A stretch of 63,411 nt of DNA from Candidatus Babeliales bacterium (lineage in GTDB: Bacteria; Patescibacteriota; Saccharimonadia; Saccharimonadales; UBA10212): positions 1 through 63,411 of the forward strand of contig DATIIZ010000012.1 of the NCBI GenBank assembly GCA_035479215.1. Reading direction: 5' to 3'. Below, in pieces: positions 7,109 through 33,600 of this stretch; the stretch's first letter is position 1, and every line of letters starts with the position of its first letter. A model generated the notes under the pieces. The model was not told the DNA's origin, did no database searches, and saw nothing but the letters and a program-made list of their open reading frames with translations. The position numbers and the translations under genes were made by a program.

Positions 7109-7903
7109 CTAGCCTAAATTGACACGGGCTCGTGCTTCTAAAAGATTCTTCGATAGCCCATCATCAAAGGTTTCAATATCTCCAGTTTTTCCTACTTGAA
7201 TCATTTCCCGAACTTTTTCTGCTACCGACTGAGGAGTAAGGGGTATCCCGCTATTAGTTAAGGCTAAAATTTCAGCTATCCGTTCTTCTGATAATTCACC
7301 AGTTGTCATATCCGTATCAACATATCCTGGGTTAAGCAGCATCGAACGAATTTCCGGCCATTCAACCGCCAAACCTTTTGTCATACCGACTAGACCGGCC
7401 TTTGAGGTTCCGTAATTGACTTGTGTAGCTTCGCCTACATCACCAACTATTGACCCTATAGTCACTATATCGGCATCCATAATTTCTTCATTTTTAGCTG
7501 CCCTTAACATAGTCACACCTACGGCCTGCGTAACCCTAAAAGTGCCAGTTAGATTTGTCTCGATTACACGGTCCCAACTTTCTTTCATTCCGATTGCGTA
7601 ACCATCTGCAGTAATTCCAGCAACATTGCAGAGAATTGAAATTGGCAACCCTGCAGTTTTTATAATATCCTTAATTCTACCCCTGATTCGATCTGTGTCT
7701 GTGATATCAAGTTCAACGCCAAAACCTTCGAGATCTGAAGCCTGGAACATTCTATCAACTTCCTTAACACCTTCACCTCGAGCAATTCCTGCCACAATAA
7801 TATTATTCCTTGCAAGCTCTTCAGCAACCGACTTACCGATACCTCTGTTAGCACCAGTTACCACAGCTAATCTACCTTCCAGGCTTCTTAGACTTTCTGA
7901 CAT
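7109..7903 (-). CDS. Short-chain dehydrogenase/reductase, FabG-like (3-oxoacyl-ACP reductase family)
   Basis: TGANRGIGKS cofactor motif, NVAGIT, catalytic YGTSKAG (YxxxK), PGYVDTDMT. Possible own SD, GGAGGTG. Confidence 0.85.
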   Translation of the reverse strand: MSESLRSLEGRLAVVTGANRGIGKSVAEELARNNIIVAGIARGEGVKEVDRMFQASDLEGFGVELDITDTDRIRGRIKDIIKTAGLPISILCNVAGITADGYAIGMKESWDRVIETNLTGTFRVTQAVGVTMLRAAKNEEIMDADIVTIGSIVGDVGEATQVNYGTSKAGLVGMTKGLAVEWPEIRSMLLNPGYVDTDMTTGELSEERIAEILALTNSGIPLTPQSVAEKVREMIQVGKTGDIETFDDGLSKNLLEARARVNLG

Positions 7904-10284: not shown

Positions 10285-10553
10285 TACCAACTCCCCTTTG
10301 TGACGCCTGGTATTTCACCCTTAGATGCGTGTTCTCTAAAGGCGATACGGGATAAGCCGAACTGGCGCATATAAGCCCTGGGTCGACCGGTCTCGGCACA
10401 ACGGTTAGTATGGCGGGTAGGGCTGCTGTTGCGTGGCAGCAGTGCTAAACCTTCCAGATCGCCGGCGGCTTTAAGTTCGGCCCGCTTGGCGGCATATTTT
10501 GCGATCATCTTATCGCGCTTTGCATCTCGTGCCAGAATAGATTTCTTAGCCAT
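10284..10553 (-). CDS. rpsN: 30S ribosomal protein S14 (long, non-zinc type)
   Basis: MAKKS...R..K....KYA.KR..LK and the C-terminal [20 protein letters not shown]. Confidence 0.95.
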
Positions 10554-10726
10554 CAGTTCTCCCTTCTCGCTTCTTTAACTTTTTCCCAGACATCTGCAAG
10601 CATATAGACACCTGCTATATCAGTCATAACAATTCCTACGGATTCCTGGTTCTCACTGTCAGCGGGCTGCTGTGGTTTTGGGTCAACATCTTTAGAACCT
10701 ATGTTTGATATATCTCGATTAGCCAT
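10553..10726 (-). CDS. Orphan small ORF (57 aa) filling the rplE|rpsN junction
   Basis: Below the ORF-track cutoff; I translated it by hand as [57 protein letters not shown]. Its ATG overlaps the rplE stop (TGATG) and its TGA overlaps the rpsN ATG (TGATG). The rpsN SD (AAGGGAG) lies within its last codons. Confidence 0.55.
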
Positions 10727-11301
10727 CAATTACTCCTTTCGAATGGGATGCCAAGCTTTTCTAGTAAGGCTTTAGAGTCCTCAGCATTATTGGCTTTGAT
10801 ATTGAATACTACCTGTAAACCATGAGCCGTAGACGTATCCTCAAACGATAACTCCGGAAAAACCGATTGGTCGGTCAAGCCGATACTGTAATTCCCCTGT
10901 TTATCAAACGAACTGTTGGAAACACCGTGGAAGTCCCGCAGCCTGGGCAGGACGATGTTGATAAAGCGGTCGGCGAATTCGTACATGCGTTCGCCGCGCA
11001 GTGTAACTTTGAGACCGACTTTGTTGCCCTCTCTTAGCTTGAAGGCCGCGATAGATTTTTTGGCCAGGGTTTCAACCGGTTGCTGGCCCGTAATTTTTCG
11101 TAAAGTATTAGCAGCGGCTTCGAGATAGCGTTTGTCATCTTTAGCCCGGCCCAGACCGGCGTTAATGACTATCTTTTCCAGACGCGGAACTTCGAATACA
11201 TTCTTAAGCCCGAGTTCCTTCTTGAGGTCGGAGACGAGAGTCTTGTCATACTCAGCCTTAAGTCGCGATTGGTACTTGATGGGTGCCACAGTATTTGCCA
11301 T
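10726..11301 (-). CDS. rplE: 50S ribosomal protein L5
   Basis: L5-like sequence (RLK..Y.......L..EL...N....P.L.KIV.N.G.G, RGERMYEF.DR). Confidence 0.96.
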   Translation of the reverse strand: MANTVAPIKYQSRLKAEYDKTLVSDLKKELGLKNVFEVPRLEKIVINAGLGRAKDDKRYLEAAANTLRKITGQQPVETLAKKSIAAFKLREGNKVGLKVTLRGERMYEFADRFINIVLPRLRDFHGVSNSSFDKQGNYSIGLTDQSVFPELSFEDTSTAHGLQVVFNIKANNAEDSKALLEKLGIPFERSN

Positions 11302-14004: not shown

Positions 14005-14289
14005 TTATCCTGAACTTCCCTGTGATTTAGCGAGTTTGCCGCCGTGGCCACGGAACTTACGAGTGGGTGCGAATTCTCCAAGTTTATGGCCGACCATATT
14101 CTCTGTTATGAATACTGGTACGTGTACTTTGCCGTTATGGACAGCGATAGTTCGTCCAACAAAATCAGGCGAAATGGTTGAAGCTCTGGCCCAGGTTTTA
14201 ATCACTGAACGGTCTCCGGTGGCTAGGTCATTTACCTTCTTAGCCAGCTTGGGGTCGATATAAGGTCCTTTTTTAAGTGATCTAGACAT
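14005..14289 (-). CDS. rpsS: 30S ribosomal protein S19
   Basis: [12 protein letters not shown] start and [33 protein letters not shown]. Confidence 0.97.
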
Positions 14290-14590
14290 GAGCTACCCCG
14301 TCATTAAGCTCGACCACCTCAGCATATGCGACTTCAATACCGTGTCTCATTGAATGGTGTATCTCAGAGAATGGTTGAGTATACTCGGAGTACTGCTCTC
14401 TCGGAACAGTAGCAAAGATAGTGTGTCCAATGGCTTGGCCAAAACCGTATAGAGTGGCGTTCGCTCTAATTCTTACATCTTCCATAGGGTGGTTAGTTAA
14501 CCTCTTAGTTCTTTCAATTGCAACTGTAGCACTTTCTGCTAGCTCCACGTCTGAAGGTTCAGTTGGTGGGTAATTATTAAATTTAAGCAT
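14282..14590 (-). CDS. Orphan small ORF (102 aa) filling the rplB|rpsS junction
   Basis: The ATG at 14590 is 1 nt after the rplB stop (TAACATG). Its 3' end overlaps the rpsS start by 8 nt. No r-protein similarity is recognisable. His-rich patch [12 protein letters not shown]-richer than its flanks. Confidence 0.6.
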
Positions 14591-17992: not shown

Positions 17993-18277
17993 TTAGCCTT
18001 CTCTTATCGATTTTGCTGCGTCTCGAATAATTTTTCTAGCGGTTTCACGGAAAACAACAGATGCTGGGTCTGCTGTATATCTTTTTGCGGTGACAACAGA
18101 AGATTCGCCAGGCTGACATTCGACATCGCTAAAACTCGCTAGAACGTTTCCAAGCCCTGTATCTTCTTCGGATTCAATCCTACCAAAACCTAAGCTATCG
18201 AGATAGAAAGTTCTTCCGTAACCACCAGGGATTTCGTATAGGTCCGATAGAAGAACTTGTTCGTTTCGTCTAGGCAT
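17993..18277 (-). CDS. Orphan small ORF (94 aa) filling the tuf|rpsJ junction
   Basis: The ATG overlaps the tuf stop (TAATG at 18275..18279) and the stop lies 5 nt before the rpsJ ATG. The rpsJ SD, AGAAGG (17997..18002), sits in its last codons. Acidic, no recognisable family. Confidence 0.6.
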
Positions 18278-19566: not shown

Positions 19567-20568
19567 TCAAACCATAGTTGCATTAATCAATTCATCTACG
19601 GTTTTCATAACGACACCGTTGCTTTGCAGAATAGTCTTCATTATAGGTGCTCGTTTCTGCAATTTACTTAATTTGTTACCTGGGCCGGTCTCATAAAATT
19701 CACGGTATCCGTCCGCTACAACAGCTAGTACACTGCCGTTCCACTTAACTCTTTCTGTCATTCCGCCGATGTCGGCCCTGACATCGCCTAAGTTTCTCAA
19801 TAGATCTACAGTCCTGCTTGAGAAAACTGAAAGATTAGCAGGAGCATGAATTTTCTCGACAGGAATGTGAAAATTACCCACTCGTTTACCGTGGACAAGA
19901 GCTGACATTTTTTCAGCAGCAATGGCAACCATCGGAGTATGCGGTGCGCCTGATTTTACACCTTTAAGTTTGAAAAATATTCCGCCTTCGGCTTCTATTT
20001 CAGCTTGTGATTTGTCTACTCCTTCCTCCTCGCCACTAATGATAATCTCAGTATCGGAGTTCTCATTAGCAACCCAAATTCCATACTTTCTGCAGATTTC
20101 GGATAAACGCTCTTCCGCCAAATGAAAAACAGCCGCCATAGCTCCTGGCTTTTCTTGAGCCGCCTCATACATAAATTGCCCGCGGGCTATAACTAAATCG
20201 AGTCCGGTGGTAGTATCGAATACCTCGTCATCGTGCATGGCTGCGAACATCCCAAAACTGTGGTACATACGACGAGAAGCATCCCTTTCTAGAACATTTC
20301 TTAGAGCTGTTGAGCCAACAATGCTTGAAATGAATGTTGCCGGCTGAGCCATTTTAGTATCTACAAGCTCTTCCTTGGGACCTTCTGTCATAATTTTTTT
20401 GACACTCTTACCTAATCTCTCACTTGCATATTCAGTTGCAAATTCAAACAATTCTCTCGCTTCAGAGACATGTCTAATCGCTCTTATATGACTTCCTGGC
20501 TCAATACTCCCTTGGCCGGGATACATAAAAGCTGTTCTTGGTGATTTCTCAAAATCAGTCTTTACCAT
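19567..20568 (-). CDS. FabD-like acyltransferase (malonyl-CoA:ACP transacylase family)
   Basis: Aligns by eye to E. coli FabD along its length: FMYPGQGS, MAQPATF, the nucleophile elbow YHSFG (GHSLG in FabD), ARGQFMYEA...PGAMAAV, APHTPMV, VKWNGSV, YETGPGNKLSKLQKR. Confidence 0.8.
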   Translation of the reverse strand: MVKTDFEKSPRTAFMYPGQGSIEPGSHIRAIRHVSEARELFEFATEYASERLGKSVKKIMTEGPKEELVDTKMAQPATFISSIVGSTALRNVLERDASRRMYHSFGMFAAMHDDEVFDTTTGLDLVIARGQFMYEAAQEKPGAMAAVFHLAEERLSEICRKYGIWVANENSDTEIIISGEEEGVDKSQAEIEAEGGIFFKLKGVKSGAPHTPMVAIAAEKMSALVHGKRVGNFHIPVEKIHAPANLSVFSSRTVDLLRNLGDVRADIGGMTERVKWNGSVLAVVADGYREFYETGPGNKLSKLQKRAPIMKTILQSNGVVMKTVDELINATMV

Positions 20569-20588
20569 TTGAATTAATCCAATAAGTA

Positions 20589-21623
20589 TCAGTTAGAAGA
20601 CTTGATGACTCTTCTATACGCATGGATGTAGTCGCGGGTCATATTCTGGTAGTTGAATTTTTTGCGCGTCCATTTAGCTACGTAATTCCTGTCGAGATTG
20701 AATAATTCGTCCATGTAGTTATAACCCTCCACGAAGTCTTCGACTAGGAATCCAGTTTTCCTGTCTTCGATGAGTTCTGGCATAGAAGCCTTTTTTATGG
20801 CCATCGTAGGCGTACCGCAATAAGCTGCTTCTATGACTGTCAGTCCAAATGGCTCACGGCGGCTCAACAGAGGATGAAGATTACACTTGGCATTTGCTGC
20901 CAATTTTATGCCCTCTTCTCTGGAGACTTCACCTAAGTATTCTACCAGTGGGTTCTTTAGGTGGGGTTTTATATACTGTTTAAAGTAATCGTAGCCTTCT
21001 AGGTCGAGCTTGCCGGCCAGTTTTATCTTCATTCCCATCGCCAACGCCAGTTGAATAGCCAAGTGAGGCGATTTATCAAAATCAAAGCGGCCGATAAAGC
21101 ACATATAGTTCTTGGGTTTTTCAACGAAAGGAAAAGTTGACGGATCAAGGCCGTTATATGCTACGCCCACAAAATTCATTCCGGGGAATGTCTGCTGTTG
21201 ATTGTGAGAGATGCTGATGAAAGGCAGATCCCGCCGCTTGGAATAGTAGTCGTAATTATCGAAATCTATATGGCCGTGTAGCGTGGTGACATTAGGATAT
21301 TGCTGGAAATCTTTAAGGTCAAAATCGTGGGAGTGGATTATATCGACATGAGGAGCCAGTTTTTTGAGTTCAGCCTTAGTTTTTTGAAGAGATAGGGCGA
21401 TCCGAGTCCGGAAATAGACTGTATCCTTTTTGGGGAAAGGCATGGATTTCTTAACTATCGGTATCAATTCGCAATCGACTTTGGAGTCACCCGGTGCCAA
21501 TAGTATTGGCTCATGCCCTTTTTCGATAAGACCCTTGATGAGATATTCAATAACTCTCTCTGTGCCACCGTAGGCAGGTGGTGGAACTGGATAGTAGGGG
21601 TTGCCGACTATTGCGATTCTCAT
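20589..21623 (-). CDS. Glycosyltransferase, GT-B fold, family 4-like
   Basis: N-terminal GG(T)ERV-type motif (YGGTERVIEYL) and C-terminal E-x7-E (EPFGLTVIE). Confidence 0.8.
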   Translation of the reverse strand: MRIAIVGNPYYPVPPPAYGGTERVIEYLIKGLIEKGHEPILLAPGDSKVDCELIPIVKKSMPFPKKDTVYFRTRIALSLQKTKAELKKLAPHVDIIHSHDFDLKDFQQYPNVTTLHGHIDFDNYDYYSKRRDLPFISISHNQQQTFPGMNFVGVAYNGLDPSTFPFVEKPKNYMCFIGRFDFDKSPHLAIQLALAMGMKIKLAGKLDLEGYDYFKQYIKPHLKNPLVEYLGEVSREEGIKLAANAKCNLHPLLSRREPFGLTVIEAAYCGTPTMAIKKASMPELIEDRKTGFLVEDFVEGYNYMDELFNLDRNYVAKWTRKKFNYQNMTRDYIHAYRRVIKSSN

Positions 21624-21626
21624 GGA

Positions 21627-23150
21627 TTATTTCTCCTCATTATTAATCTCGTACGGATAAGCCGGGTACCGGGCGGAGAGCTCTCTGGAAAAGCGCATCC
21701 GATGGACTAATGGAATATGCTGAAGTACTTCTTTTTCCAGTTCGGCCTGCCAAGGCTCTTGATGTGTATGCCGGGAAGATAACCTGCGGCGATGATTCTG
21801 AATAGCCAAGATAGCCGAGACCGTCCAGGCTTGGACGCGTTCAGGACGGTTATTACTATCTACTAACACCAGCTCCCCGTGTGATTTCGATGAAGAAGGT
21901 ATACCCAGTATACGGCCTCTAGGGTCGACATAGATAAATTCCGGATAACTTCTAATTGCCCTTATGACGTTCAGGAGTCGGTTCTCCAGCTCCCGGGATA
22001 AGGCTGAAAAGCCTTGTCGCCGAAGTCCCTTGGCGATATCATATGTCTCTTTAGGCCAGGTTACATAGGAGCCGTGGTAGTCCCAAAAATGGACCAGCCT
22101 AGCTTCGCTAAGAGCCCGGCTGCGGATACCGGCATCGGTTAAAAAGTCTGTGCCCATTATCTCGCGGACTATTCCAGAGACGAACTCTTTCTTATCTTCT
22201 AGCGGTAATTCTTCAAAAAACAGGCTGTCCAGCAATTCTGCCGGGTTGGCCGTTATGGTAGTTATGACTCGTAGGTTATTTTGATCATCATAATCTGTGC
22301 CAAGTGCAAAGTAATTACGCCGAGGCTGCCATAGAAGTTCGATAGTTCTTTTTTGAATTTTTTCGGCATGGGTATCCAAAACTGTTTTTTTAGAAGGTAG
22401 GAGTTCAGCCGCATGTTTAAAGGCATCATATGTCAGGCCCTGGATCTCTATAGAAGAAATAGGGTGGCTATGGCTAGCCATTTTCCCGTCCTCGTGGATA
22501 TAGAATTCGTTTGAGTCTTTCCAAACCTGATTTTCTATGCCGTGAGGATTCTTGCGATGGTATTCCAGCAAGCCGCTGCGGGATGAACTTACGGTACTTA
22601 CCAGCCATTCAATGGCATCATCCATGACACTGAGCACCGACTTGACCTGGCCGCTCCTTAAAACGACCTCCTCAGCTAAAATTTCCATGCCGTAGGCTTG
22701 GCAGTAAGCGGCTAATACTTTTATAAAATGCGGAGTAGAATCTACGGCGCCGTAATAGGCCAAACAATTTTCGTTACCGCCCCAAATCGTAGCCAGCCGT
22801 TCATAGATATCCATCGAAATCTTATTTATAGGCTTACCATCAACTTCCGGAGTCCGGTATTCATGGATTATTTTGCCAGGTTCTTCCTCGTTGTCTTTGT
22901 TTTGTTTTTCTCCCTGCAGACTAGATAAAGTAAGCAGGATCTTCTCGACTAGTTTCGGCTTAATGTAAAGTAGATCTTCAGCGACTTCTAGAGAATCGCG
23001 GCCAAAAACAGCACCCCGAAATAACCTGTCTGAGCTAGCATATATGCCTAAGCCACTCTTAGATGTCACACTCCTGAGGGCTTGGGTGGGCGGTACTACA
23101 ACTTTAGGCAGGGGCAACGCTCTAGGCAGTTGCTTGATAATTCTCCTCAT
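21627..23150 (-). CDS. Amylo-alpha-1,6-glucosidase / glycogen-debranching-enzyme-like (GDE_C family) glycoside hydrolase
   Basis: Family-typical motifs FGRDSLEVAEDL, EPGKIIHEY, YYGAVDSTPHFI, NQVWKDS, EIQGLTYDA. Confidence 0.7.
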   Translation of the reverse strand: MRRIIKQLPRALPLPKVVVPPTQALRSVTSKSGLGIYASSDRLFRGAVFGRDSLEVAEDLLYIKPKLVEKILLTLSSLQGEKQNKDNEEEPGKIIHEYRTPEVDGKPINKISMDIYERLATIWGGNENCLAYYGAVDSTPHFIKVLAAYCQAYGMEILAEEVVLRSGQVKSVLSVMDDAIEWLVSTVSSSRSGLLEYHRKNPHGIENQVWKDSNEFYIHEDGKMASHSHPISSIEIQGLTYDAFKHAAELLPSKKTVLDTHAEKIQKRTIELLWQPRRNYFALGTDYDDQNNLRVITTITANPAELLDSLFFEELPLEDKKEFVSGIVREIMGTDFLTDAGIRSRALSEARLVHFWDYHGSYVTWPKETYDIAKGLRRQGFSALSRELENRLLNVIRAIRSYPEFIYVDPRGRILGIPSSSKSHGELVLVDSNNRPERVQAWTVSAILAIQNHRRRLSSRHTHQEPWQAELEKEVLQHIPLVHRMRFSRELSARYPAYPYEINNEEK

Positions 23151-23200
23151 ATTTGCACCACTATAATAACTCCTAAACTGCCCGGCTGTGAACTAGGTCA

Positions 23201-25288
23201 CTATTTCCCAGATTTTGAAATAATGTTTTGGGTTACGTTCGGTGGTACATCTTGATAATGGTCAAGCTCCATGCTGGAACTGGCCCGCCCCTGGGTCATA
23301 CTACGCAGATTAGTAGTGTAACCGAACATTTCACCCAGAGGTACAAAGGCCGTGACTTCTTTTATACCAGGGCTAAGGTCTTCCATCGATTCTACCCGTC
23401 CGCGCTTGGAATTCAGGTCGCCGATAACGTCGCCCATAAAGTCTTCAGGTGTTACAACGACCACTTTCATAATCGGCTCCAGCAGTACGGGTGCGGCTTT
23501 TTTCACACCTTCCTGGAGCGCCATCGAACCAGCGATTTTAAAAGCCATCTCGGATGAGTCGACATCGTGGTATGAGCCATCATAAAGCTCGGCTGTGATA
23601 TCTACTACCGGGTAGCCGGCGATGACGCCATTGGCCATGGCTTCTTCTATACCGGAACGCACAGCGGGGATATATTCACTTGGAACGGCACCGCCTTTGA
23701 TGCTGTTTTTAAATTCAAAGCCCTTGCCAGCTTCATTCTGGGATAATCTGAGCCAGACGTGCCCGTATTGGCCACGGCCGCCGGTTTGGCGGATGTATTT
23801 ACCTTCTTGCTCAACCGCATCCTTGCGGATAGTTTCCCGATAAGCAACCTGTGGCTGGCCGATGTTGGCTTCGACGGTGAATTCGCGCTTCATTCGATCG
23901 ACGATAATCTCCAGGTGCAGCTCACCCATGCCGGAGATGATTGTCTGGCCAGTCTCATGGTCGACTTTGATGCGGAATGTCGGATCTTCTTCGGCCAGTC
24001 GCTGCAGGGCGATACTCATTTTTTCCTGGTCGGCTTTTGTTTTGGGCTCGATAGCGATGCTAACAGGCGGGTCCGGGAAGGTAATACTTTCAAGCACGAT
24101 CGGGCTGTTTGGATCACACAGGGTATTTCCGGTCGTAGTGCTCTTTAGCCCGACAATAGCAGCGATGTCCCCAGCCTCCACCTCTGTTACATCTTCACGT
24201 TTATCGGCATGCAGCCGGACGATGCGGCCGACACGTTCTTTTTCGCCGTTAGAACTGTTAAGTATATAACTGCCGGCTGTGACTTTTCCAGAATAGACCC
24301 TGAAGAAGGCCAGTTTTCCGACGAAGGGGTCAGCAGAGATTTTAAAAGCCAGGGCAGCGAATGGTTCCGCTGGATTTGGTTTACGTTCGATTTCATCGCC
24401 GTTTTTTGGATTAACTCCCCAAGTTGAGCCCCGATCCAGCGGATGCGGCAGAAAGTCATTTATAGAATCAAGCAGTTTCTCAACTATCACACCTCGGCCA
24501 TCGCCTCCTGTTACAACGAAGAATTTTCCGGAAAGGATGGCCGTGCGGATCGCCTGCTTGATTTCGTCAGCGGATAAGCCTTCTTCGCCGACTTCAAAGT
24601 ATTTTTCGAGCATTTGTTCGTCTTCCGCTACCGCATTTTCTATCAACAGGCTGCGGTATTTTTTGACCTGGTCGGCCATATCTTCCGGAACTTCGCCTTC
24701 GACCAGATTCTTATCTGTAAAATCCTTGTAGGTGTAGCTTTTCATGGTAATAAGGTCGACGACGCCAGAAATGCCTTGCTCGAAACCAATCGGTAGATGA
24801 ATTGGAAAGGCCCGTTTGTTTAGACGGTGGTGGATACTATCTAAGCTCTTATAAAAATCGCCGCCGGTTTGATTGATTTTATTAATAAAACAGATGCGGG
24901 GTACGCCGTATTTATCGGCTTGGCGCCAAACTGTTTCCGACTGGCTTTCGACGCCCATTTTGCCATCAAACACGACTACCGCGCCATCGAGTACTCGTAG
25001 CGAACGCTCTACCTCGACAGTGAAGTCAATGTGGCCGGGAGTGTCGATAATATTGATTTTGTGGTCTTTCCAAAAGCAAGTAACTGCGGCGGCGGTTATG
25101 GTGATGCCTCGTTCTTTTTCTTGGGCCATCCAGTCGGTTGTAGTTTCGCCTTCATGCACCGCGCCGATTTTGTGTTTTAAACCGGTACGGTAAAGAATAC
25201 CTTCTGTAGTGGTGGTTTTGCCGGCGTCAATATGGGCAATAATACCGATGTTGCGCAACTTTTCTAATTGGTATTTTTTATCTGCCAT
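23201..25288 (-). CDS. fusA: Elongation factor G
   Basis: [24 protein letters not shown] and full-length EF-G similarity. Confidence 0.99.
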
Positions 25289-25541
25289 CTCGGGTGTTTA
25301 CCTTCAGCTCTTTCCTCATTTGATACAGTTCTCGAGTGTGTGGAGCTAAAATAGCTAGTTCATATGCCATTCGGCCTATTAATTTTATGCCAGCACCCAT
25401 GGATTGAAACGATTCGGGGTGAAAAATACCAAAACCAAAAGTTCTAATAGCTCTGTCTGTCACTCTGTTACTTAGCTCTACGTAAGAAGTATGCTCTTCG
25501 AGAACCTTTTTTATTCTCTCACCGTGAGTTTCTAGTTCCAT
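25278..25541 (-). CDS. Orphan small ORF (87 aa) filling the rpsG|fusA junction
   Basis: The ATG at 25541 is 3 nt after the rpsG stop. Its 3' end overlaps the fusA start by 11 nt. Hand-counted GC is 107/264 (about 41 percent) against about 57 percent in the first 120 nt of adjacent rpsG. No recognisable family. Confidence 0.6.
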
Positions 25542-25544
25542 GAA

Positions 25545-26024
25545 CTACGTCCTAGCAAAGTGGGCGAAGGCCCGGTTGGCTTCGGCCATACGGTGGGTGT
25601 CTTCGCGTTTTTTAACGGCGCCGCCGGTGCTGTTATAAGCATCAACTAACTCTAGGGCGATGCGGTCTTCCATACTCATGCCAGACCTAGCCCGGGCGGC
25701 CTCGACAAACCACATAACTGTTAGATGCTGCTGGCGCTGGCCTTTTACTTCGAAAGGTATCTGGTAATTAGCGCCACCGACGCGTCGGGAGCGGGTTTCG
25801 AGGTGCGGCTGGACATTCTTCATGGCCTGCTCAAAAACTTCTAGCGGATTTTGGACCTTAAGCTTATCGGCTGCTTTTTGCATACCGCCATAAACTAACC
25901 GCTCGGCTATCTGTTTTTTACCATCCTGCATAACCCGGTTGATTAGTTTCTGTACAGCAGTACTGTTGTAGATACGATCGGGCTGGACTTCGCGCACGAG
26001 GCTTTTAGTCTTATGCCGCGGCAT
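25545..26024 (-). CDS. rpsG: 30S ribosomal protein S7
   Basis: MPRHKTK...PD..Y start and the C-terminal AHRMAEANRAFAHF. ATG at 26024 with SD GGAG (26031..26034). The ORF-track start at 26027 is a GTG one codon upstream. Confidence 0.97.
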   Translation of the reverse strand: MPRHKTKSLVREVQPDRIYNSTAVQKLINRVMQDGKKQIAERLVYGGMQKAADKLKVQNPLEVFEQAMKNVQPHLETRSRRVGGANYQIPFEVKGQRQQHLTVMWFVEAARARSGMSMEDRIALELVDAYNSTGGAVKKREDTHRMAEANRAFAHFART

Positions 26025-26310
26025 CACTATCTCCAGTTCCTAAAAAATCTGCTACTGTAAAGTCTACAAATGGATCTTTTCTTATCCTGTACATTTGCAT
26101 CTGAGCCATGCCGCTTAATACACTGCCGTCATCGAATTTACGGAGTACACTTCCGGCATTACCACCGTCCCACAGTTCGCGCATTTCCCTTAAGTCTTCG
26201 ATATCTTGTCTCTGGTCTTCTTTTTGAGTCGTGGGATCTTCGATGCCATCAAGAAACCCAAGCAAATCTTCGTCCATTGGTAATGCCCCACCAGACTCAA
26301 CGGAACTCAT
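26011..26310 (-). CDS. Orphan small acidic ORF (99 aa) filling the rpsL|rpsG junction
   Basis: The ATG overlaps the rpsL stop (TAATG at 26308..26312). Its 3' end overlaps the rpsG start by 14 nt and contains the rpsG SD. Very D/E-rich, no recognisable family. Confidence 0.6.
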   Translation of the reverse strand: MSSVESGGALPMDEDLLGFLDGIEDPTTQKEDQRQDIEDLREMRELWDGGNAGSVLRKFDDGSVLSGMAQMQMYRIRKDPFVDFTVADFLGTGDSDAAA

Positions 26311-26720
26311 TATTTCGGCCTCTTGCTACCGTATTTGGAGCGGCCCTGTTTGCGGTTTTGGACACCTTGTAAATCTAAATTACCCCTGACAATGTGGTAG
26401 CGGACACCGGGAAGGTCTTTGACCCGGCCGCCGCGGACTAATACTACGGCGTGCTCCTGCAAGTTATGGCCCTCGCCGCCAATGTAGGCCCAGACTTCGT
26501 GACCGTTAGTCAGGCGGACACGAGCAACTTTTCGCAAAGCCGAGTTCGGTTTCTTGGGAGTTTTGGTAGTAACCCGAACACATACACCCCTTTTGAAAGG
26601 CGAGTGCTTTTCATAGCTCTTAGTCTTGAGATTATTTACTACACGGTCAAGAGCCGGGGACCCCGACTTTTTTGAGGTATTAGCACGTGGCTTTCTGACA
26701 AGCTGATTGATGGTTGGCAT
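26310..26720 (-). CDS. rpsL: 30S ribosomal protein S12
   Basis: [11 protein letters not shown] start, [17 protein letters not shown], and [13 protein letters not shown]. Confidence 0.99.
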
Positions 26721-26768
26721 ATTACTCTTTAAAACTCCTTGGAGATTCAGTGGTTAAGTCTAGCAAAA

Positions 26769-29700
26769 TTACTCCTTAGAGGCAACTGTTTCCAGTTCGC
26801 TTTCTAAACTCGTTTCTTCAGTTTGTTCGTCTTCGTTTCTACGCCGGGCGCCGGTACCGACTGGTATCCGTCGGCCAAGTATGACATTTTCTTTCAGACC
26901 ATACAGATGGTCGACCTTACCGCTTGTTGCTGCGGCAATCAGTACACGGGTGGTGTCTTGGAACGAGGCAGCCGATAAGAACGAATCGGTTGAAAGCGAT
27001 GCTTTGGTGATACCCAGTAGAAGTTGTGTGTATTTCACAGGGTGCTTGCCTTCGGATAACAATCGGTCATTGGTTTCTTCTACTGCCAGCTTGCTGACGA
27101 TGTCGCCTGTTATGAATTCACTGTCTCCGGCGTCTTCTATCTGGACACGGCTGAACATCTGACGGACGATTACCTCAAGGTGCTTATCAGCGATGTTCTG
27201 GCCCTGGCTGGCAAAGATGTAGAGGATTTCTGTCATGATGTAGCGCTGGGTAGCTTCTACACCCTGCAAGCGCATCAAATCGTGTAGGTTGATTGAACCA
27301 TTGGTCAAACGCTGGCCAGCAAAGACCTCATCACCATCGGCGACCATCATTTGTTTAAAACCCGGTATCTCGTAGCGAATCATCGTCTTGGCTGTCGGAG
27401 CAATCGTAATCACGCCTTCCGAAACGCTAGCTTTGCCAATCATCGGTGCGGTAATTGGTTCGCTTTGGTCTTCCTGGGCAGCAACCACATCACCGATATT
27501 GACTTCATCACCATCTTTTATCTGAGCGGTGCGACCATTGAGTTCTATCTCAATCGCTTTTTGCTTTTTAGCGGTGACCTGGACTACGTAATGATCACCC
27601 TCTTCCCAGAGGTTGATCTTGCCTGATATGTCTGTCAAATAGGCTTGTCCTTTCGGTGTGCGGACTTCTAGCAACTCTTCTACACGTGTAAGTCCCTGAG
27701 TCACATCATCTCCTGCAGTGACGGCACCGGCCCGGTGCTTAGAGTCCAAAGACAACTGAGTGCCGGGCTCGCCGATAGACTGGGCGGCAATGACTCCAAT
27801 TGGATAATCTGATGCAACTAATTCTCCGGTAGCTAGATCGATTCCGTAGGATTCTCGGGTAACACCGCGGGTGGAGGAACATGAAAGAACACTCATTATG
27901 CGGACACTATCAATAGAGGCGTCTTCCTGGATAGATTTGGCTACTTTCGGAGTAACCAGTTCACCGGCCTTGATATACCTTTTGACATTTTCCGCCACAT
28001 AACGGCCTTCTAGTCGTTTTCCGAGCTCTATTCCAATTGTTTCTGAATCGGAGCGATGGACCGGAAAGCCGTGGTCTTCAGCTTCCTGCTCAAGCGTAAA
28101 AACATCTTGGGCGACATCTACTAAGCGTCGCGTTAGATAGCCTGAATCGGCGGTTCGCAAGGCGATATCGATCAGCGATTTTCTGGTTCCCCGGGTAGCA
28201 GTAAAGTACTCCAGTGGATTAAGCCCGTACTTGTAGTTAGACCGGACAGGAAGCTCCATGGCCCGTCCGGTAGCATCAGCTCTGATGCCGATCATTCCGA
28301 CGGAGTCTTTCATCTGGCTGAGGTTACCTCTGGCTCCAGATGCGACCGCCATAGACATGGTGTTGTCCTCTGTGGCGAATTGCTCTGCCAAGGATTTTTC
28401 TACTTCTGAGTCAACGTCAGTCCAGGCATCTATTGTCAGCCTGTATCTTTCATCGTCAGTTATCAAACCGGAAGCATATTGTTTACTGACTTCTGTGGCC
28501 TTTTTTTCGCCTTCATCGACGATTTTCTGCAAGACCTTCAAGTCAGAAAAGTCGTCCATACCGATTGATATTCCAGAGGCGGTGGCGTGGCGGAAGCCCA
28601 GGTCTTTGAGTTCGTCGGCAATCTCTGAAGTCTTTTGCTGGCCGTATTTCTGGTAGGTGTAGCTCATGACGTCATCAAGTTTGCGGCTGGTCATGGTTAC
28701 ATTGCGATATTCGGCGTCTTCAGGGAATATTTCATTGAAAAGTAGGCGACCAGCAGTTGTGTTGCGAACTTCGCCACGAAAAGGTACCAGCACCCTGCTC
28801 TGCAAAGTGATTTTACCGTTATCTAAAGCTAGTACGAGTTCGTCGATACTGCTAAAGGCGCGCGGTTCCTTACTCTTTGAACCCGGTCGCTCATATGTCA
28901 GATAGTAACAACCAAGGACAATGTCTTGCTCAACATGCAGGATCGGTGAGCCATCGGCTGGCTTTAATAGGTTCTTGTTGGATGCCATGATTTCACGGGC
29001 TTCTGCTTGAGCCAAATCTGAAAGCGGGAGGTGAACAGCCATCTGATCGCCATCAAAGTCAGCGTTGAAGCCTTTGCAGACCAGCGGGTGAAGTTGGATT
29101 GCTTTACCTTCTATTAAGACCGGTTGGAAGGCTTGGATGCTAAGCCGGTGCAAACTTGGTGCCCGGTTTAAAAGAACATATTTTCCTTTAATGACCTCGT
29201 CTAGAGTGTCCCAGACGACGCTTTCGTTGGATTCAATCATCCGGGTAGCACTGCGAATGTTGTGGGCCAGTTCTTGTTCTATAAGCCGACCAATGACGAA
29301 CGGCTTAAATAGTTCTAGAGCCATGGTCTTGGGCAGTCCGCACTGGTACATCTTGAGTTCCGGGCCGGCTACTATTACTGATCGTCCCGAATAATCTACT
29401 CTTTTTCCAAGCAGATTCTGGCGGAACCGGCCCTGTTTACCTTTGAGCATATCGCTAAGGCTTTTTAGGCGTCGGCGTTGGCCGGTCGCGGCTACAGCCC
29501 GCCCTGATCTGGTTGAATTATTATCTATAAGGGCATCCACGGCTTCCTGCAACATTCGTTGTTCGTTACGGCGGATGACCTCAGGCGCGTTCAGCTCCAT
29601 CAGCTTCTTTAACCGGTTGTTTCGATTGATTACCCGACGATATAGGTCGTTCAGGTCACTGGTAGCAAACCTGCCTCCGGTAAGCTGAACCATCGGACGT

Positions 29701-30614
29701 AGATCCGGCGGAATTACTGGTAGAACACTGACAGTTAAACTGCTTGGCTTAATACCGGCACGGTGCATGCTTTCCAGCAGGCGCAGGCGCTTCATGATTT
29801 TCTTTTTACGCTGGCCCTTAGCTTCTTCGGCTTCTTTGTTTAGGTCTTCGATCAATTTTTCGAGGTCAACTTCTTCCAGAAGCTCTTTCAGAGCTGCGCC
29901 GCCCATTCCGACGGATATCAAGGCCTGCAGTTCTTCTGGCAAGCTTCGGTATTCTGTTTCACTCAATAGGCGAAACTTCTCCAGGCTGTCAACTTGAGTG
30001 TTGAAGGTTTCCATCTCTCGTGCTAGTTCTTCAAGCTCCTTAGTGCGGGCTTCGGCCAAAGCATGGATATCGACGCCATCTTTCTTAGATTCATCTTCGT
30101 AGCGGGCATTTATAGCCGCTTCGGCGGCGGTATATTCGGCGCGGCGATCGTCGCGGATCTTATTCCGAGCAACCATATCAACGCTTTTGATAATGTAGCT
30201 GGCAAAGTAGGCGACTCTTTCAAGGTTTTTAACAGTCATGCCTAGCAAAAGGCCCATCGCGCTTGGCGTACCTCTTAAGAACCAGATGTGACCCACAGGA
30301 CTAGCCAGATTGATGTGGCCCATGCGTTCACGGCGGACGATGCTGCGGGTTACTATTTCGCCATGCTTATCGACGGCAGCCTCACGCGAGCGAACTCCTT
30401 TGTACTTGGCATCATGGGGATTTATATCTTTGACAGGGCCGAAAATGCGTTCGCAGAAAAGACCGTCACGCTCAGGTTTTTGGGTCCGGTAGTTTATGGT
30501 CTCCGGCTTGGTGACCTCTCCGTAACTCCACTCCTGGATATCGTCTGGGCTAGCGATGGCCAGCCTAACAGCGTCAAAGTCTGCAATATTAGTCCCTGTT
30601 GAATATTGGCGCAT
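26769..30614 (-). CDS. rpoC: DNA-directed RNA polymerase subunit beta'
   Basis: The NADFDGDQM catalytic motif ([16 protein letters not shown]) and full-length beta' similarity. Confidence 0.99.
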
Positions 30615-30616
30615 CC

Positions 30617-33600
30617 TTAGGCCTCCTCTTCGATGGTTTTACTGGATATATCTTCAAGTTCGTCGGGTTCTGTTAGCGATAAACCGCTATCTTCGGCAAT
30701 CGCCAGGTCATCGGCCACAATCGAATCATCTACGATTACAGCGTCATCGATAATCGGGGTGTCGGCAGAAACCGGCACAGCTGCCTTGGCTTCTTCTTTT
30801 ATGTGCTGTGCCAGGACATGCTCGGCATCAATTATCTCGTTTTGGGCTAGCAGGTCGACTTTTAGACCCAGACCTTGGAGTTCCTTGACCAGAACATTGA
30901 AACTTTCGGGGACTTTAGGTCCTTGGATGGTCGTGCCTTTTATGATGGCCTCGTAGGCCTTGGCCCGCCCGTAAACATCATCTGATTTTATAGTCAGCAT
31001 TTCTTGAAGGGTATTCGCGGCGCCATAGGCTTCCAGGGCCCAGACTTCCATCTCTCCAAACCGCTGTCCACCGTTTTGAGCTTTTCCGCCCAGCGGCTGT
31101 TGAGTAACCATAGTGTATGGCCCAGTCGAGCGGGCATGAATTTTATCGCTGACCATGTGGTTAAGCTTAATGATATACATACTGCCAACAGTCGTTCTTT
31201 CCGAAAAGGCCTCTCCCGAACGCCCGTCGTAGAGCTGCTGCTTACCGTCTTCTGGCAAGCCGGCTTGTTTTAATAGGTCTTGGATTTTAGCTATTGGGAC
31301 TCCATTGAACGCCGGGCTGGCAATTTTGATACCAAGTGCCCTGGCGGCCATACCCAGGTGGGTCTCAAATAACTGGCCGATGTTCATCCTAGAGGGGACG
31401 CCCAAAGGGTTCAAGATAATGTCGATAGGTGTACCGTCTTCTGTGAATGGCATATCCTCAGCGGGCAGGATCCGGGCAATAACACCCTTGTTACCATGGC
31501 GGCCGCCGAGTTTATCGCCGACGGATATCTTGCGCATCTGGGCTACAAACACCTGGATTTGCATTATTACCCCGGCTTTCAGCTCATGACCGTTAGCCCG
31601 GCTGAACACCTTTACGCCAACAACTTTACCGTGGCGGCCAGTGCTCATACGCTGAGAAGTATCGCGCACTTCCTTAGCCTTTTCTCCGAAGATAGCCCGC
31701 AGTAGTCGTTCTTCGCTAGAAAGTTCCTGTTCACCTTTAGGGGTGATTTTACCGACTAGGATATCCCCGGGGTGGACTTCGGCACCGATGCGGACAATTC
31801 CGTCTTCATCGAGGTGCCTGAGGGCTTCCTCAGAGACATTCGGGATGTCTCGAGTAACGATTTCCGGACCCAGTTTGGTTTCCCGAACCTCGGTCATGTA
31901 ATCCACGATGTGGATTGAAGTTAAGGTGTCATCCTCGACTAATCTGCGGGAAATAATCACGGCATCCTCAAAATTATATCCGCCCCATGGCATGAAGGCT
32001 GTCAGAAGGTCTTTACCGAGCGCCAATTCACCATCAGCGATACTCATGCCTTCGATCAAGGCATCACCAGCCTTAACTTTGTCTCCGCTATTGACTACGA
32101 CTAACTGGTTGATGGAACTGCCTTCATTGCTGCGGATAAAGTGCACTGGGCTATAGGTTACTTTGCCACCTTTTTTGTAATTGACTATCAGCTCATCGGC
32201 AGTAGCTTTTTCAACTGTGCCGTCATCTTGGGCGACTATTAACTGGCCGGTATTATGCGCCACCAGGGACTCCATACCGGTTCCGACAATCGGCGATTCA
32301 GGTTTGATCAATGGTACGGCCTGTCGCTGTTGGTTAGAACCCATCAGCGAACGTAGAACATAGTTTTTCTCTACGAAGGGTATTAGTCCGGCGCTGGAAC
32401 CAATGGTCTGGCTCTGGGCGGCATCCATATAGGTTACATCGTCGGCGTCAACTTCACCGGCTTCCAAAAGAGTACGAGCACTGACACGGCCTTCTTTGAA
32501 ATAGCCTTTTTCATCAATCTCATTTCCAGCACCAGCGATCACTCCCTCAGCTTCTTGGTCAGCATCTAAGTAAATGATCTTATCTGTTACTTTTGCTTTA
32601 ACCGGCCAAGTGGCTCGGTCTTTGATAGTGGCTAGCTTTTTGGCAGCTGCATCGCTGATAACGGTTCCTGCCTTAACAATTACTTTGCCTTTTTCATCTT
32701 CCAGATCATTGCGCGCCACATGGCCGGCGGCTTCCTTGGCGGTCACTGCATTTATTACCTTGCGGTACGGTGTCTCCACAAATCCATATTCATTAATCCG
32801 GGCATAGCTGGCCAGATTCAAAACCAGGCCTATATTGGCGCCTTCCGGTGTTTCAACTGGGCAGATTCGTCCATAGTGAGTTGCGTGGGCATCACGGACT
32901 TCAAATCCAGCCCGTTCCCGTGATAAACCACCCGGACCCATCGAACTTAGGCGTCGTTTGTGGGCAAGTTCTGAAAGGGGATTAATTTGGTCCATAAACT
33001 GAGATAGTTGTGAGCTGGCGAAAAATTCACGCACAGCAGCGACTACCGGGCGGGCATTAATTAGCTGGGCTGGCGTTACTGTTTCAATCTCACTCATGCT
33101 CATCCGGTCTTTAGCGTTACGCTCCATACGCAGCAAACCGATTCGGAATTGTCGTTGGACTAACTCGCCGACCAGTTTGACGCGGCGATTAGCCAATGAG
33201 TCGATTTCATCAGCCGGGTCCTGGGTAACGTTCAAGCGGATAATTTCAGCAATTACAGCCAGAAGGTCCTCGATCCGCATCACGCGGTTATCTATGGTAT
33301 TGGCGACTTTAAGATCAAGTCTTTTATTGATCTTGTAGCGGCCGACACGGCCAAAATCAAATCGTTTAAAATTATAGAACATGTTCTCCAGCAAACTGCG
33401 GGCGTTATCAATGGTTGCCAAGTCACCTGGTCTTAACCGCCGGTATACCTCAATCAGGGCCTCGTTGGCAGTGTTGGATGGGTCTTTATTCAATGTGGCG
33501 TCAATATAATTAATTTCACCCTGGTCGACGTGCTTGAAGGCATCTTTAATCTGTTTGTCATCCAAGCCGAGTGCTTTTAGAAGTGTCGTGACGGCAATCT

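Follow-up and report, generated by a model that had tools for sequence, protein, structure and literature searches.

Few gene arrangements in bacteria are as rigid as the order rpsL-rpsG-fusA. The closest described system is that of Escherichia coli, where the rpsL-rpsG spacer is a structured RNA which is not translated; binding of ribosomal protein S7 to this RNA represses the coupled translation of S7 (Saito, Mattheakis and Nomura 1994, summarised in PMC3616713). RNA of this E. coli type is narrowly distributed, although the distance between rpsL and rpsG is extended in about one third of bacteria (PMC3616713). A second point of reference is termination-reinitiation coupling at overlapping stop and start codons (-1 in TAATG, -4 in ATGA), as described by Huber et al. 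2019/2023 and reviewed in PMC12548453; the range in which coupling and reinitiation are most efficient extends from -4 to +3 (PMC12548453).

The locus described here belongs to the str region of an uncultured Saccharibacteria bacterium and lies on the minus strand of the stretch of 63,411 nucleotides that was analysed as a whole (hereafter ‘the window’). It resembles the S12-S7 region of E. coli in its position between rpsL and rpsG, in a probable tying of S7 synthesis to upstream translation, and in a structured rpsG start. However, the E. coli element is an S7-binding structured RNA of about 96 nt which is not translated, whereas the spacer of the window is a 99-codon gene (‘ORF99’) devoid of excess RNA structure, in a lineage for which a direct TAATG fusion is the default. 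When compared with known cases of termination-reinitiation, rpsL and ORF99 show the classical -1 overlap, and ORF99 and rpsG overlap by a short stretch, with the Shine-Dalgarno (SD) motif located in the upstream coding sequence, but a whole extra cistron is interposed and the second junction, at -14, would be expected to support weaker reinitiation. Like the orphan small genes of Patescibacteria/CPR, ORF99 is short and belongs to no family, with one homologue among 1.84 billion representative proteins; unlike those, it is fixed edge to edge within a rigid essential operon, and its strong acidity recurs in unrelated genes that fill this slot in other species. Genomic-island hot spots, the content of which is exchanged by homologous recombination, likewise combine conserved flanks with variable, often non-homologous content and a scattered distribution, but the present site holds a single mini-gene of 35-100 codons which has no promoter of its own and would be expressed by coupling within a ribosomal operon. 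We consider it fairly probable that ORF99 is a selected, orphan, acidic mini-gene residing in an ancestrally fused and coupled rpsL/rpsG junction, where it would relay ribosomes from one gene to the other.

An acidic gene between rpsL and rpsG

A preliminary description of this DNA had placed a D/E-rich ORF on the rpsL stop codon, with the ribosome-binding site and start codon of rpsG inside it and its own stop 14 nt into rpsG in another frame. Each of these placements was verified in the sequence (Table 1). The rpsL stop TAA (26312-26310) and the ORF99 ATG (26310-26308) share one base in TAATG, and an SD-like GAGG lies 8 nt ahead of this ATG. The frame then stays open for 99 codons up to a TAA at 26013-26011, and the SD motif of rpsG (GGAG, 26034-26031) precedes the rpsG ATG (26024-26022) by 6 nt, both within ORF99. 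The overlapping ends are read in different frames, that is, as …GAT GCC GCG GCA TAA in ORF99 and as ATG CCG CGG CAT AAG in rpsG. The product is indeed acidic (D+E = 22, K+R = 9, pI 4.05), and the peptide quoted in the preliminary description is correct, beginning at Met12. In relatives, the equivalent overlap is mostly 10 nt and ends in DAA or DAS followed by the stop. As an aside, the S7 protein of the window starts with MPRHK, and that of most relatives with MPRK; the additional His codon (CAT AAG) provides the TAA of ORF99, and the overlap comprises 14 nt instead of the usual 10 nt.

Table 1. Positions in the window of the str-region genes, of the elements at the rpsL-rpsG junction, and of small ORFs at other junctions.
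Feature	Position	Strand	Basis
rpoC	26769-30614	-	str region
rpsL, ribosomal protein S12, 136 aa	26310..26720	-	Pfam PF00164, E = 4.9e-37; sequence
SD-like GAGG in final rpsL codons (AAG AGG CCG AAA TAA)	26319..26322	-	sequence
ORF99, 99-aa acidic protein gene, middle cistron between rpsL and rpsG	26011..26310	-	frame, coding score, homologue P0002
rpsG Shine-Dalgarno GGAG, within the C-terminal codons of ORF99	26031..26034	-	sequence
Overlap of ORF99 3' end and rpsG, 14 nt	26011..26024	-	sequence
rpsG, ribosomal protein S7, 159 aa (start ATG at 26024)	25545..26024	-	Pfam PF00177, E = 1.1e-55
ORF87, mini-gene at the rpsG/fusA junction	25278..25541	-	coding score 0.196 bit/codon; homologues in the same slot in G020 and G424
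fusA	23201-25288	-	str region
tuf/rpsJ edge-to-edge ORF, 94 aa, pI 4.9, TAATG with tuf	17993-18277	-	
rplB/rpsS edge-to-edge ORF, 102 aa, pI 5.4	14282-14590	-	
rplE/rpsN edge-to-edge ORF, 58 aa, pI 4.5	10553-10729	-	

When the spacer interior was shuffled 500 times, no open frame connecting the rpsL stop with the rpsG start arose. With a codon-usage model trained on 303 long ORFs of the 0.69-Mb genome, ORF99 scores 0.315 bit/codon in frame, which corresponds to the 78th percentile of 99-codon windows from true genes and exceeds the scores of all open wrong-frame ORFs of at least 80 codons in its own genome (546/546), while the five remaining frames of the region score between -0.3 and -1.15. 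The locus recurs in an independent assembly, GCA_964400765.1, in which 2 of 3300 nt differ, both outside ORF99, and ORF99 is annotated as a called gene. Neither an internal promoter nor a terminator was found within ORF99. Searches of the whole genome with blastn, tblastn and tblastx detected no paralogue, and an origin by duplication of another gene was rejected. A 100-aa ORF on the opposite strand (26070-26372, plus) has a negative coding score and was dismissed as a shadow of ORF99.

The relatives of ORF99 are exceedingly few. A word-indexed search of 5.8 billion proteins returned ORF99 itself as the sole match, and the genomes of 60 relatives gave no match. The exhaustive HMMER scan of the 1.84 billion representatives yielded one true homologue, P0002 (99 aa, E = 5.5e-20); P0003, a D/G-rich repeat protein of 2116 aa, was discarded as a compositional match. 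P0002 is located on a 705-bp contig which exhibits the same context as the window, that is, the rpsL 3' end, TAATG, the ORF and rpsG. A profile built from ORF99 and P0002 recruited no further members, and a scan of JGI metagenomes gave no match. The two proteins align without gaps over 99/99 residues with 53% identity, and the identities at the first, second and third codon positions are 0.71, 0.67 and 0.45. The corresponding pN of 0.30 and pS of 0.72 yield a dN/dS of about 0.16, a value derived from one pair with dS near saturation. Comparison of the adjoining rpsG genes gives a pS of 0.83, i.e. saturation, along with 82% amino-acid identity. Conservation between ORF99 and P0002 is concentrated in three blocks (residues 11-25, 41-70 and 81-90), and hydrophobic and aromatic positions are preferentially kept, the aromatic residues at 6 of 7 positions. 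Hence, since dN/dS is low, the alignment is gapless, and blocks and aromatic residues are conserved while synonymous sites in rpsG are saturated, the ORF99 peptide is, as judged from this one sequence pair, under purifying selection. Because frame, codon usage and purifying selection are all gene-like, ORF99 is, on the evidence of its sequence, a genuine protein-coding gene of a narrow lineage and not a chance frame.

It would conversely have to be assumed, if ORF99 were not a gene, that the 285-nt spacer is a non-coding, S7-binding leader of rpsG which is open by accident. Such a reading can appeal to the regulation of S7 through rpsL-rpsG RNA in E. coli and to the roughly one third of bacteria with an extended distance (PMC3616713). 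However, the complete lack of open frames among the shuffles, the gene-like codon score and the protein-like substitutions relative to P0002 stand against it. Moreover, the folding energy of the ORF99 region equals that of shuffled sequences (z = -0.35), thus revealing no excess of RNA structure, a search of Rfam at E-values up to 1 over positions 23000-31000 gave no match, and close relatives have no spacer at all. A structured RNA or ribosomal protein leader was rejected on account of the Rfam and folding results, and we regard the non-coding reading as hardly credible. The region is a coding frame and not an untranslated, conserved, structured RNA as in S7 autoregulation of the E. coli type.

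Searches of Pfam, NCBIfam, PHROGs and PADLOC assigned ORF99 to no family, with at most noise far below the cut-offs, and no match was found among PDB sequences. Neither a signal peptide nor a membrane segment was detected in the hydrophilic protein (GRAVY -0.5). AlphaFold2 predicts four to five helices, comprising residues 14-22, 30-48, 52-61, 63-78 and 86-90, at low confidence (pLDDT 56 for the sequence alone and 49 with the two-sequence alignment), and the best Foldseek match of these low-confidence models in the PDB has E = 7.4. The ORF99 product is a small, acidic and probably helical protein. An acidic DNA/RNA-mimic or anti-sigma-like fold, for which the preliminary description proposed to search, is at this low confidence no more than a candidate.

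The junction across Saccharimonadales and the start of rpsG

We compared the rpsL-rpsG junction at 75 loci. These come from the family of the window (48 of its 49 genomes, that of the window included), from 6 genomes belonging to other families of the order, and from 21 additional Saccharimonadales. The distance between the two genes is below 90 nt at 43/75 loci, mostly in the form of TAATG: at 39/75 the genes overlap or are 0-5 nt apart, and at 4 more they are separated by 26-72 nt. Among the 6 other species of the genus, 5 likewise have a compact junction. In the insert-free genomes the rpsL 3' end (…AAG AGG CCn AAA TAATG) is at the same time the initiation region of rpsG; there, the homologous rpsL 3' end, as in ...AAGAGGCCnAAATAATGCC..., directly precedes the rpsG ATG. 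In the window, this very TAATG site initiates ORF99 instead of rpsG. Because 43 of 75 loci, including those of 5/6 same-genus species, fall below 90 nt, the ancestral or default junction is, by this comparison, a fused and coupled rpsL/rpsG pair (TAATG) without any spacer. ORF99 is then an insertion into a fused junction and, as far as these alignments tell, has taken over the ancestral coupled start of rpsG, while its final codons supply a new SD motif for rpsG. Since half of the relatives do without an insert, ORF99 is dispensable for ribosome function. The preliminary description had also suggested that an ORF at this place would replace or modify S7 control of the E. coli type. This suggestion finds no support: given that the lineage default is no spacer, there is no such element for ORF99 to replace, and the folding and Rfam results as well as the narrow distribution of the E. 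coli RNA point the same way.

An insert of at least 90 nt separates rpsL and rpsG at the remaining 32/75 loci. In 29 of these 32 inserts an ORF extends from end to end, where 1.64 would be expected from shuffled sequences; a spanning ORF was defined as one in the sense direction which starts no more than 8 nt from the rpsL stop and reaches the rpsG start. An SD-like motif at positions -20 to -4 of rpsG is present in 25/32 of the related inserts. The start and stop of ORF99 are placed for coupling to rpsL and rpsG, in the same edge-to-edge layout as in these 29/32 inserts.

In the window, the rpsL/ORF99 junction is at -1 (TAATG) and the ORF99/rpsG junction at -14, with the SD motif in the 3' end of ORF99. 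The calculated opening energies of the start regions are 12.3 kcal/mol for ORF99 and 11.8 kcal/mol for rpsG, which occupy ranks 2-3 among 25 starts in the window, and 5.2 kcal/mol for the operon-proximal rpsL start. Ribosomes ending rpsL would reinitiate on ORF99 at TAATG, and ribosomes translating and finishing ORF99 would in turn make the occluded start of rpsG accessible or reinitiate at it. In this manner the coupling chain from S12 to S7 would stay intact despite the insert, and the ORF99 protein would be produced at roughly the level of ribosomal proteins. The overlap of 14 nt between ORF99 and rpsG lies outside the -4 to +3 range and is therefore less favourable for reinitiation, and rpsG, having its own canonical SD motif, could initiate independently. 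On balance, we lean slightly towards a relay of coupling from rpsL via ORF99 to rpsG which keeps the chain and yields such amounts of protein.

Occupants of the rpsL-rpsG slot

When the ORFs occupying the slot were grouped by clustering and HMMs, one family of six (L004, L006, L010, L015, L036 and L018; the core acidic slot family), three pairs, and many singletons including ORF99 were obtained. The core family had no new hits in a search of 401 genomes of the order, 378 of them counted as further genomes. Comparisons of ORF99 with other slot ORFs by HMM, jackhmmer and hhalign were negative or borderline: hmmsearch gave E of about 1-1.7 against the core family (in a set of 30 sequences) and hhalign a probability of 0.3%, the hhalign probability was 0.7% for the group of L008, L040 and L019, and the best single match was L040 with E = 0.018 in a set of 31. 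Slot families other than that of ORF99 retain 30-40% amino-acid identity across genera, with third codon positions near saturation. What the occupants do share is acidity. Among the 26 slot ORFs with 55 aa or more, 23 have a pI below 5, against a background of 8% for the long ORFs of the genome and 7% for open wrong-frame ORFs. We infer that selection favours acidity in whichever gene fills the rpsL-rpsG slot. Our search of the literature found no published description of acidic genes in this position.

The presence of an insert is phylogenetically scattered. A tree with 54 tips calls for at least 20 changes, of which at least 7 are forced by supported branches, and the number of changes is no lower than with shuffled labels; this tree derives from the flanking genes and has weak resolution, so that the number of events is only indicative. 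Same-genus sister genomes were also observed to differ in their slots. L035 (G029) and L036 (G420), which are well-supported sisters, harbour non-homologous occupants, and L006 (G023) compared with L041/L043, as well as L057 compared with L058, display different ORFs, or an ORF in one and none in the other. Such contrasts suggest cassette-like replacement. The S7 protein of the organism encoding P0002 is 82% identical to that of the window, and relatives without ORF99 reach 87-91%. Scattered presence, sister contrasts and this S7 distance fit repeated loss and/or exchange mediated by the flanks. From these patterns, the slot would be a site of high turnover at which unrelated small genes are gained and lost, and its genes were probably exchanged via recombination in the conserved flanks. 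Saccharibacteria have been shown to undergo natural transformation with homologous recombination (PMC10633639).

Several further types of insert were seen. The spacers of L038 (G025), L058 (G027), L029 (G016) and L059 comprise 99-106 nt and consist of short tandem and inverted repeats which form long hairpins (z between -2.4 and -4.4). L038 and L058, which belong to different genera, are 81% identical at the nucleotide level, with the third codon position being most conserved, while synonymous sites in the flanks are about 45-50% identical. These inserts look like a conserved or recently spread RNA or DNA element, and not like a protein gene. Two Cys-rich slot ORFs of 78-80 aa, L031 (G047) and L050 (G033), have a ‘...N(N/G)GAC(I/L)L...’ motif and several Cys residues in common, although they belong to different families of the order; L062 and L066 also contain Cys. 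The Cys-containing ORFs may constitute a second, metal-binding class of slot proteins. In genus g7, the spacers of L047, L049 and L053 (203-328 nt) open with a conserved ‘ATG nCC CAT AC’ (M-[TAS]-H-T) just past the rpsL stop; the frame breaks in two of the three inserts, and a second ORF spans the other 71-74% of the spacer. This represents either a two-ORF arrangement or a decaying insert.

The hairpin inserts of 99-106 nt are all open from rpsL to rpsG, without protein-like conservation. That even these inserts of about 100 nt remain open is the best comparative support for the view that translation of the insert matters for rpsG. It also raises the question of whether the peptide itself matters. 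The frame could be open merely to let ribosomes pass from the end of rpsL to the beginning of rpsG, with a functionless peptide selected to be harmless, i.e. acidic and soluble. The occupation of the slot by unrelated sequences, always edge to edge, would then be readily understood, as would the open frames in hairpin and repeat inserts whose third codon positions are the most conserved and the lack of an insert in half of the relatives; even the common acidity could reflect selection for harmlessness. However, such a reading does not account for the dN/dS of ORF99 and P0002, for the equal, gapless length of the two proteins, or for hydrophobic and aromatic residues kept although neutral sites are saturated. 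The codon usage of ORF99, which resembles that of well-adapted genes, and the amino-acid identity which other slot families maintain across genera likewise speak for a selected peptide. We thus consider a functionless peptide very doubtful, and return to the reading of ORF99 as a selected gene.

Candidate roles and other junctions

Which role a selected product might have is a matter of speculation. In eukaryotes, dedicated acidic chaperones exist for basic ribosomal proteins, e.g. Yar1, Tsr2 and Acl4. By analogy, ORF99 is a small acidic protein encoded next to genes of very basic ribosomal proteins (S12 with pI 11.4 and S7 with pI 10.2), although it exhibits neither sequence similarity nor, in the low-confidence models, fold similarity to these chaperones, and we know of no bacterial precedent for acidic chaperones of ribosomal proteins. 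Our preferred guess, although of low probability, is that the ORF99 protein serves S12 and S7, or the ribosome, as a dispensable acidic partner or as a charge buffer.

The main alternative, equally speculative, is that ORF99 is an accessory passenger which exploits strong expression: a real small protein unrelated to S12, S7 and the ribosome, serving, for example, in host-epibiont interaction or counter-defence. Its siting would be explained by coupled junctions that offer high expression without a promoter, and by conserved flanks that permit exchange through natural transformation, as shown for Saccharibacteria (PMC10633639). The patchy, non-phylogenetic distribution and the different cassettes of sister genomes are in accord with this idea, and so is the finding that the S7 protein of the P0002 organism is no closer to that of the window than are those of relatives lacking ORF99. 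Similar orphan mini-genes occur, moreover, in four other junctions of the window. Yet PADLOC, PHROG, Pfam and NCBIfam offer no match, the hydrophilic protein is devoid of signal peptide and membrane segment, and acidity throughout the slot suggests a constraint imposed by the location or by basic neighbours rather than a diversity of functions. A passenger with an unrelated function thus appears rather unlikely.

Among the other junctions, that of rpsG and fusA contains ORF87, which starts 3 nt past the rpsG stop, overlaps the fusA start by 11 nt, and encodes a basic protein (pI 9.2); homologues in the same slot were detected in two other genera (G020, E = 9e-6; G424, E = 1e-4). In relatives, this junction is almost never compact, spanning 209-1077 nt within the family of the window and being compact in some other Saccharimonadales, and the small ORFs which relatives have there are very diverse, many of them Cys-rich with CxxC pairs and some belonging to an ‘MPPLK...’ family. 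In L010 and L068, the gene at this place looks like a four-helix-bundle protein of the 23S-IVS type. The ORFs at the tuf/rpsJ and rplB/rpsS junctions have no match in the 48 other genomes of the family. Larger, non-ribosomal ORFs are present in the window as well, namely three (333, 344 and 507 aa) between fusA and tuf (19567-23150, minus strand) and one of 264 aa between rplO and secY (7109-7903, minus strand).

A broader reading would regard the coupled junctions of the ribosomal and str operons in Saccharimonadales (rpsL/rpsG, rpsG/fusA, tuf/rpsJ, rplB/rpsS and rplE/rpsN) as promoterless expression slots which serve as nurseries and exchange points for new small genes, with the occupants of rpsL/rpsG, unrelated in sequence, converging on acidity and acting on S12, S7 or the 30S subunit. 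Inserts would have to stay translated in order to preserve coupling, and the acidic occupants, made in equimolar amounts, would act, for example, as charge-shielding escorts or as ribosome modulators. We rate this reading, as a whole, as quite unlikely. If true, it would reveal a kind of bacterial partner of ribosomal proteins which has so far not been described.

Taken singly, ORF99 is an orphan gene with one known relative, and thus a modest gain. What reaches further is that the rigid rpsL-rpsG-fusA order tolerates, at about 40% of the loci examined, a fast-turnover extra cistron which is nearly always acidic. If the relay proposed here exists, constraints of translational coupling can force inserted DNA into translation and thereby seed new, highly expressed genes. 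Finally, should S12, S7 or the 30S subunit be the target of the acidic proteins, these would represent lineage-specific accessories of the ribosome, in hosts whose ribosomes are already unusual.
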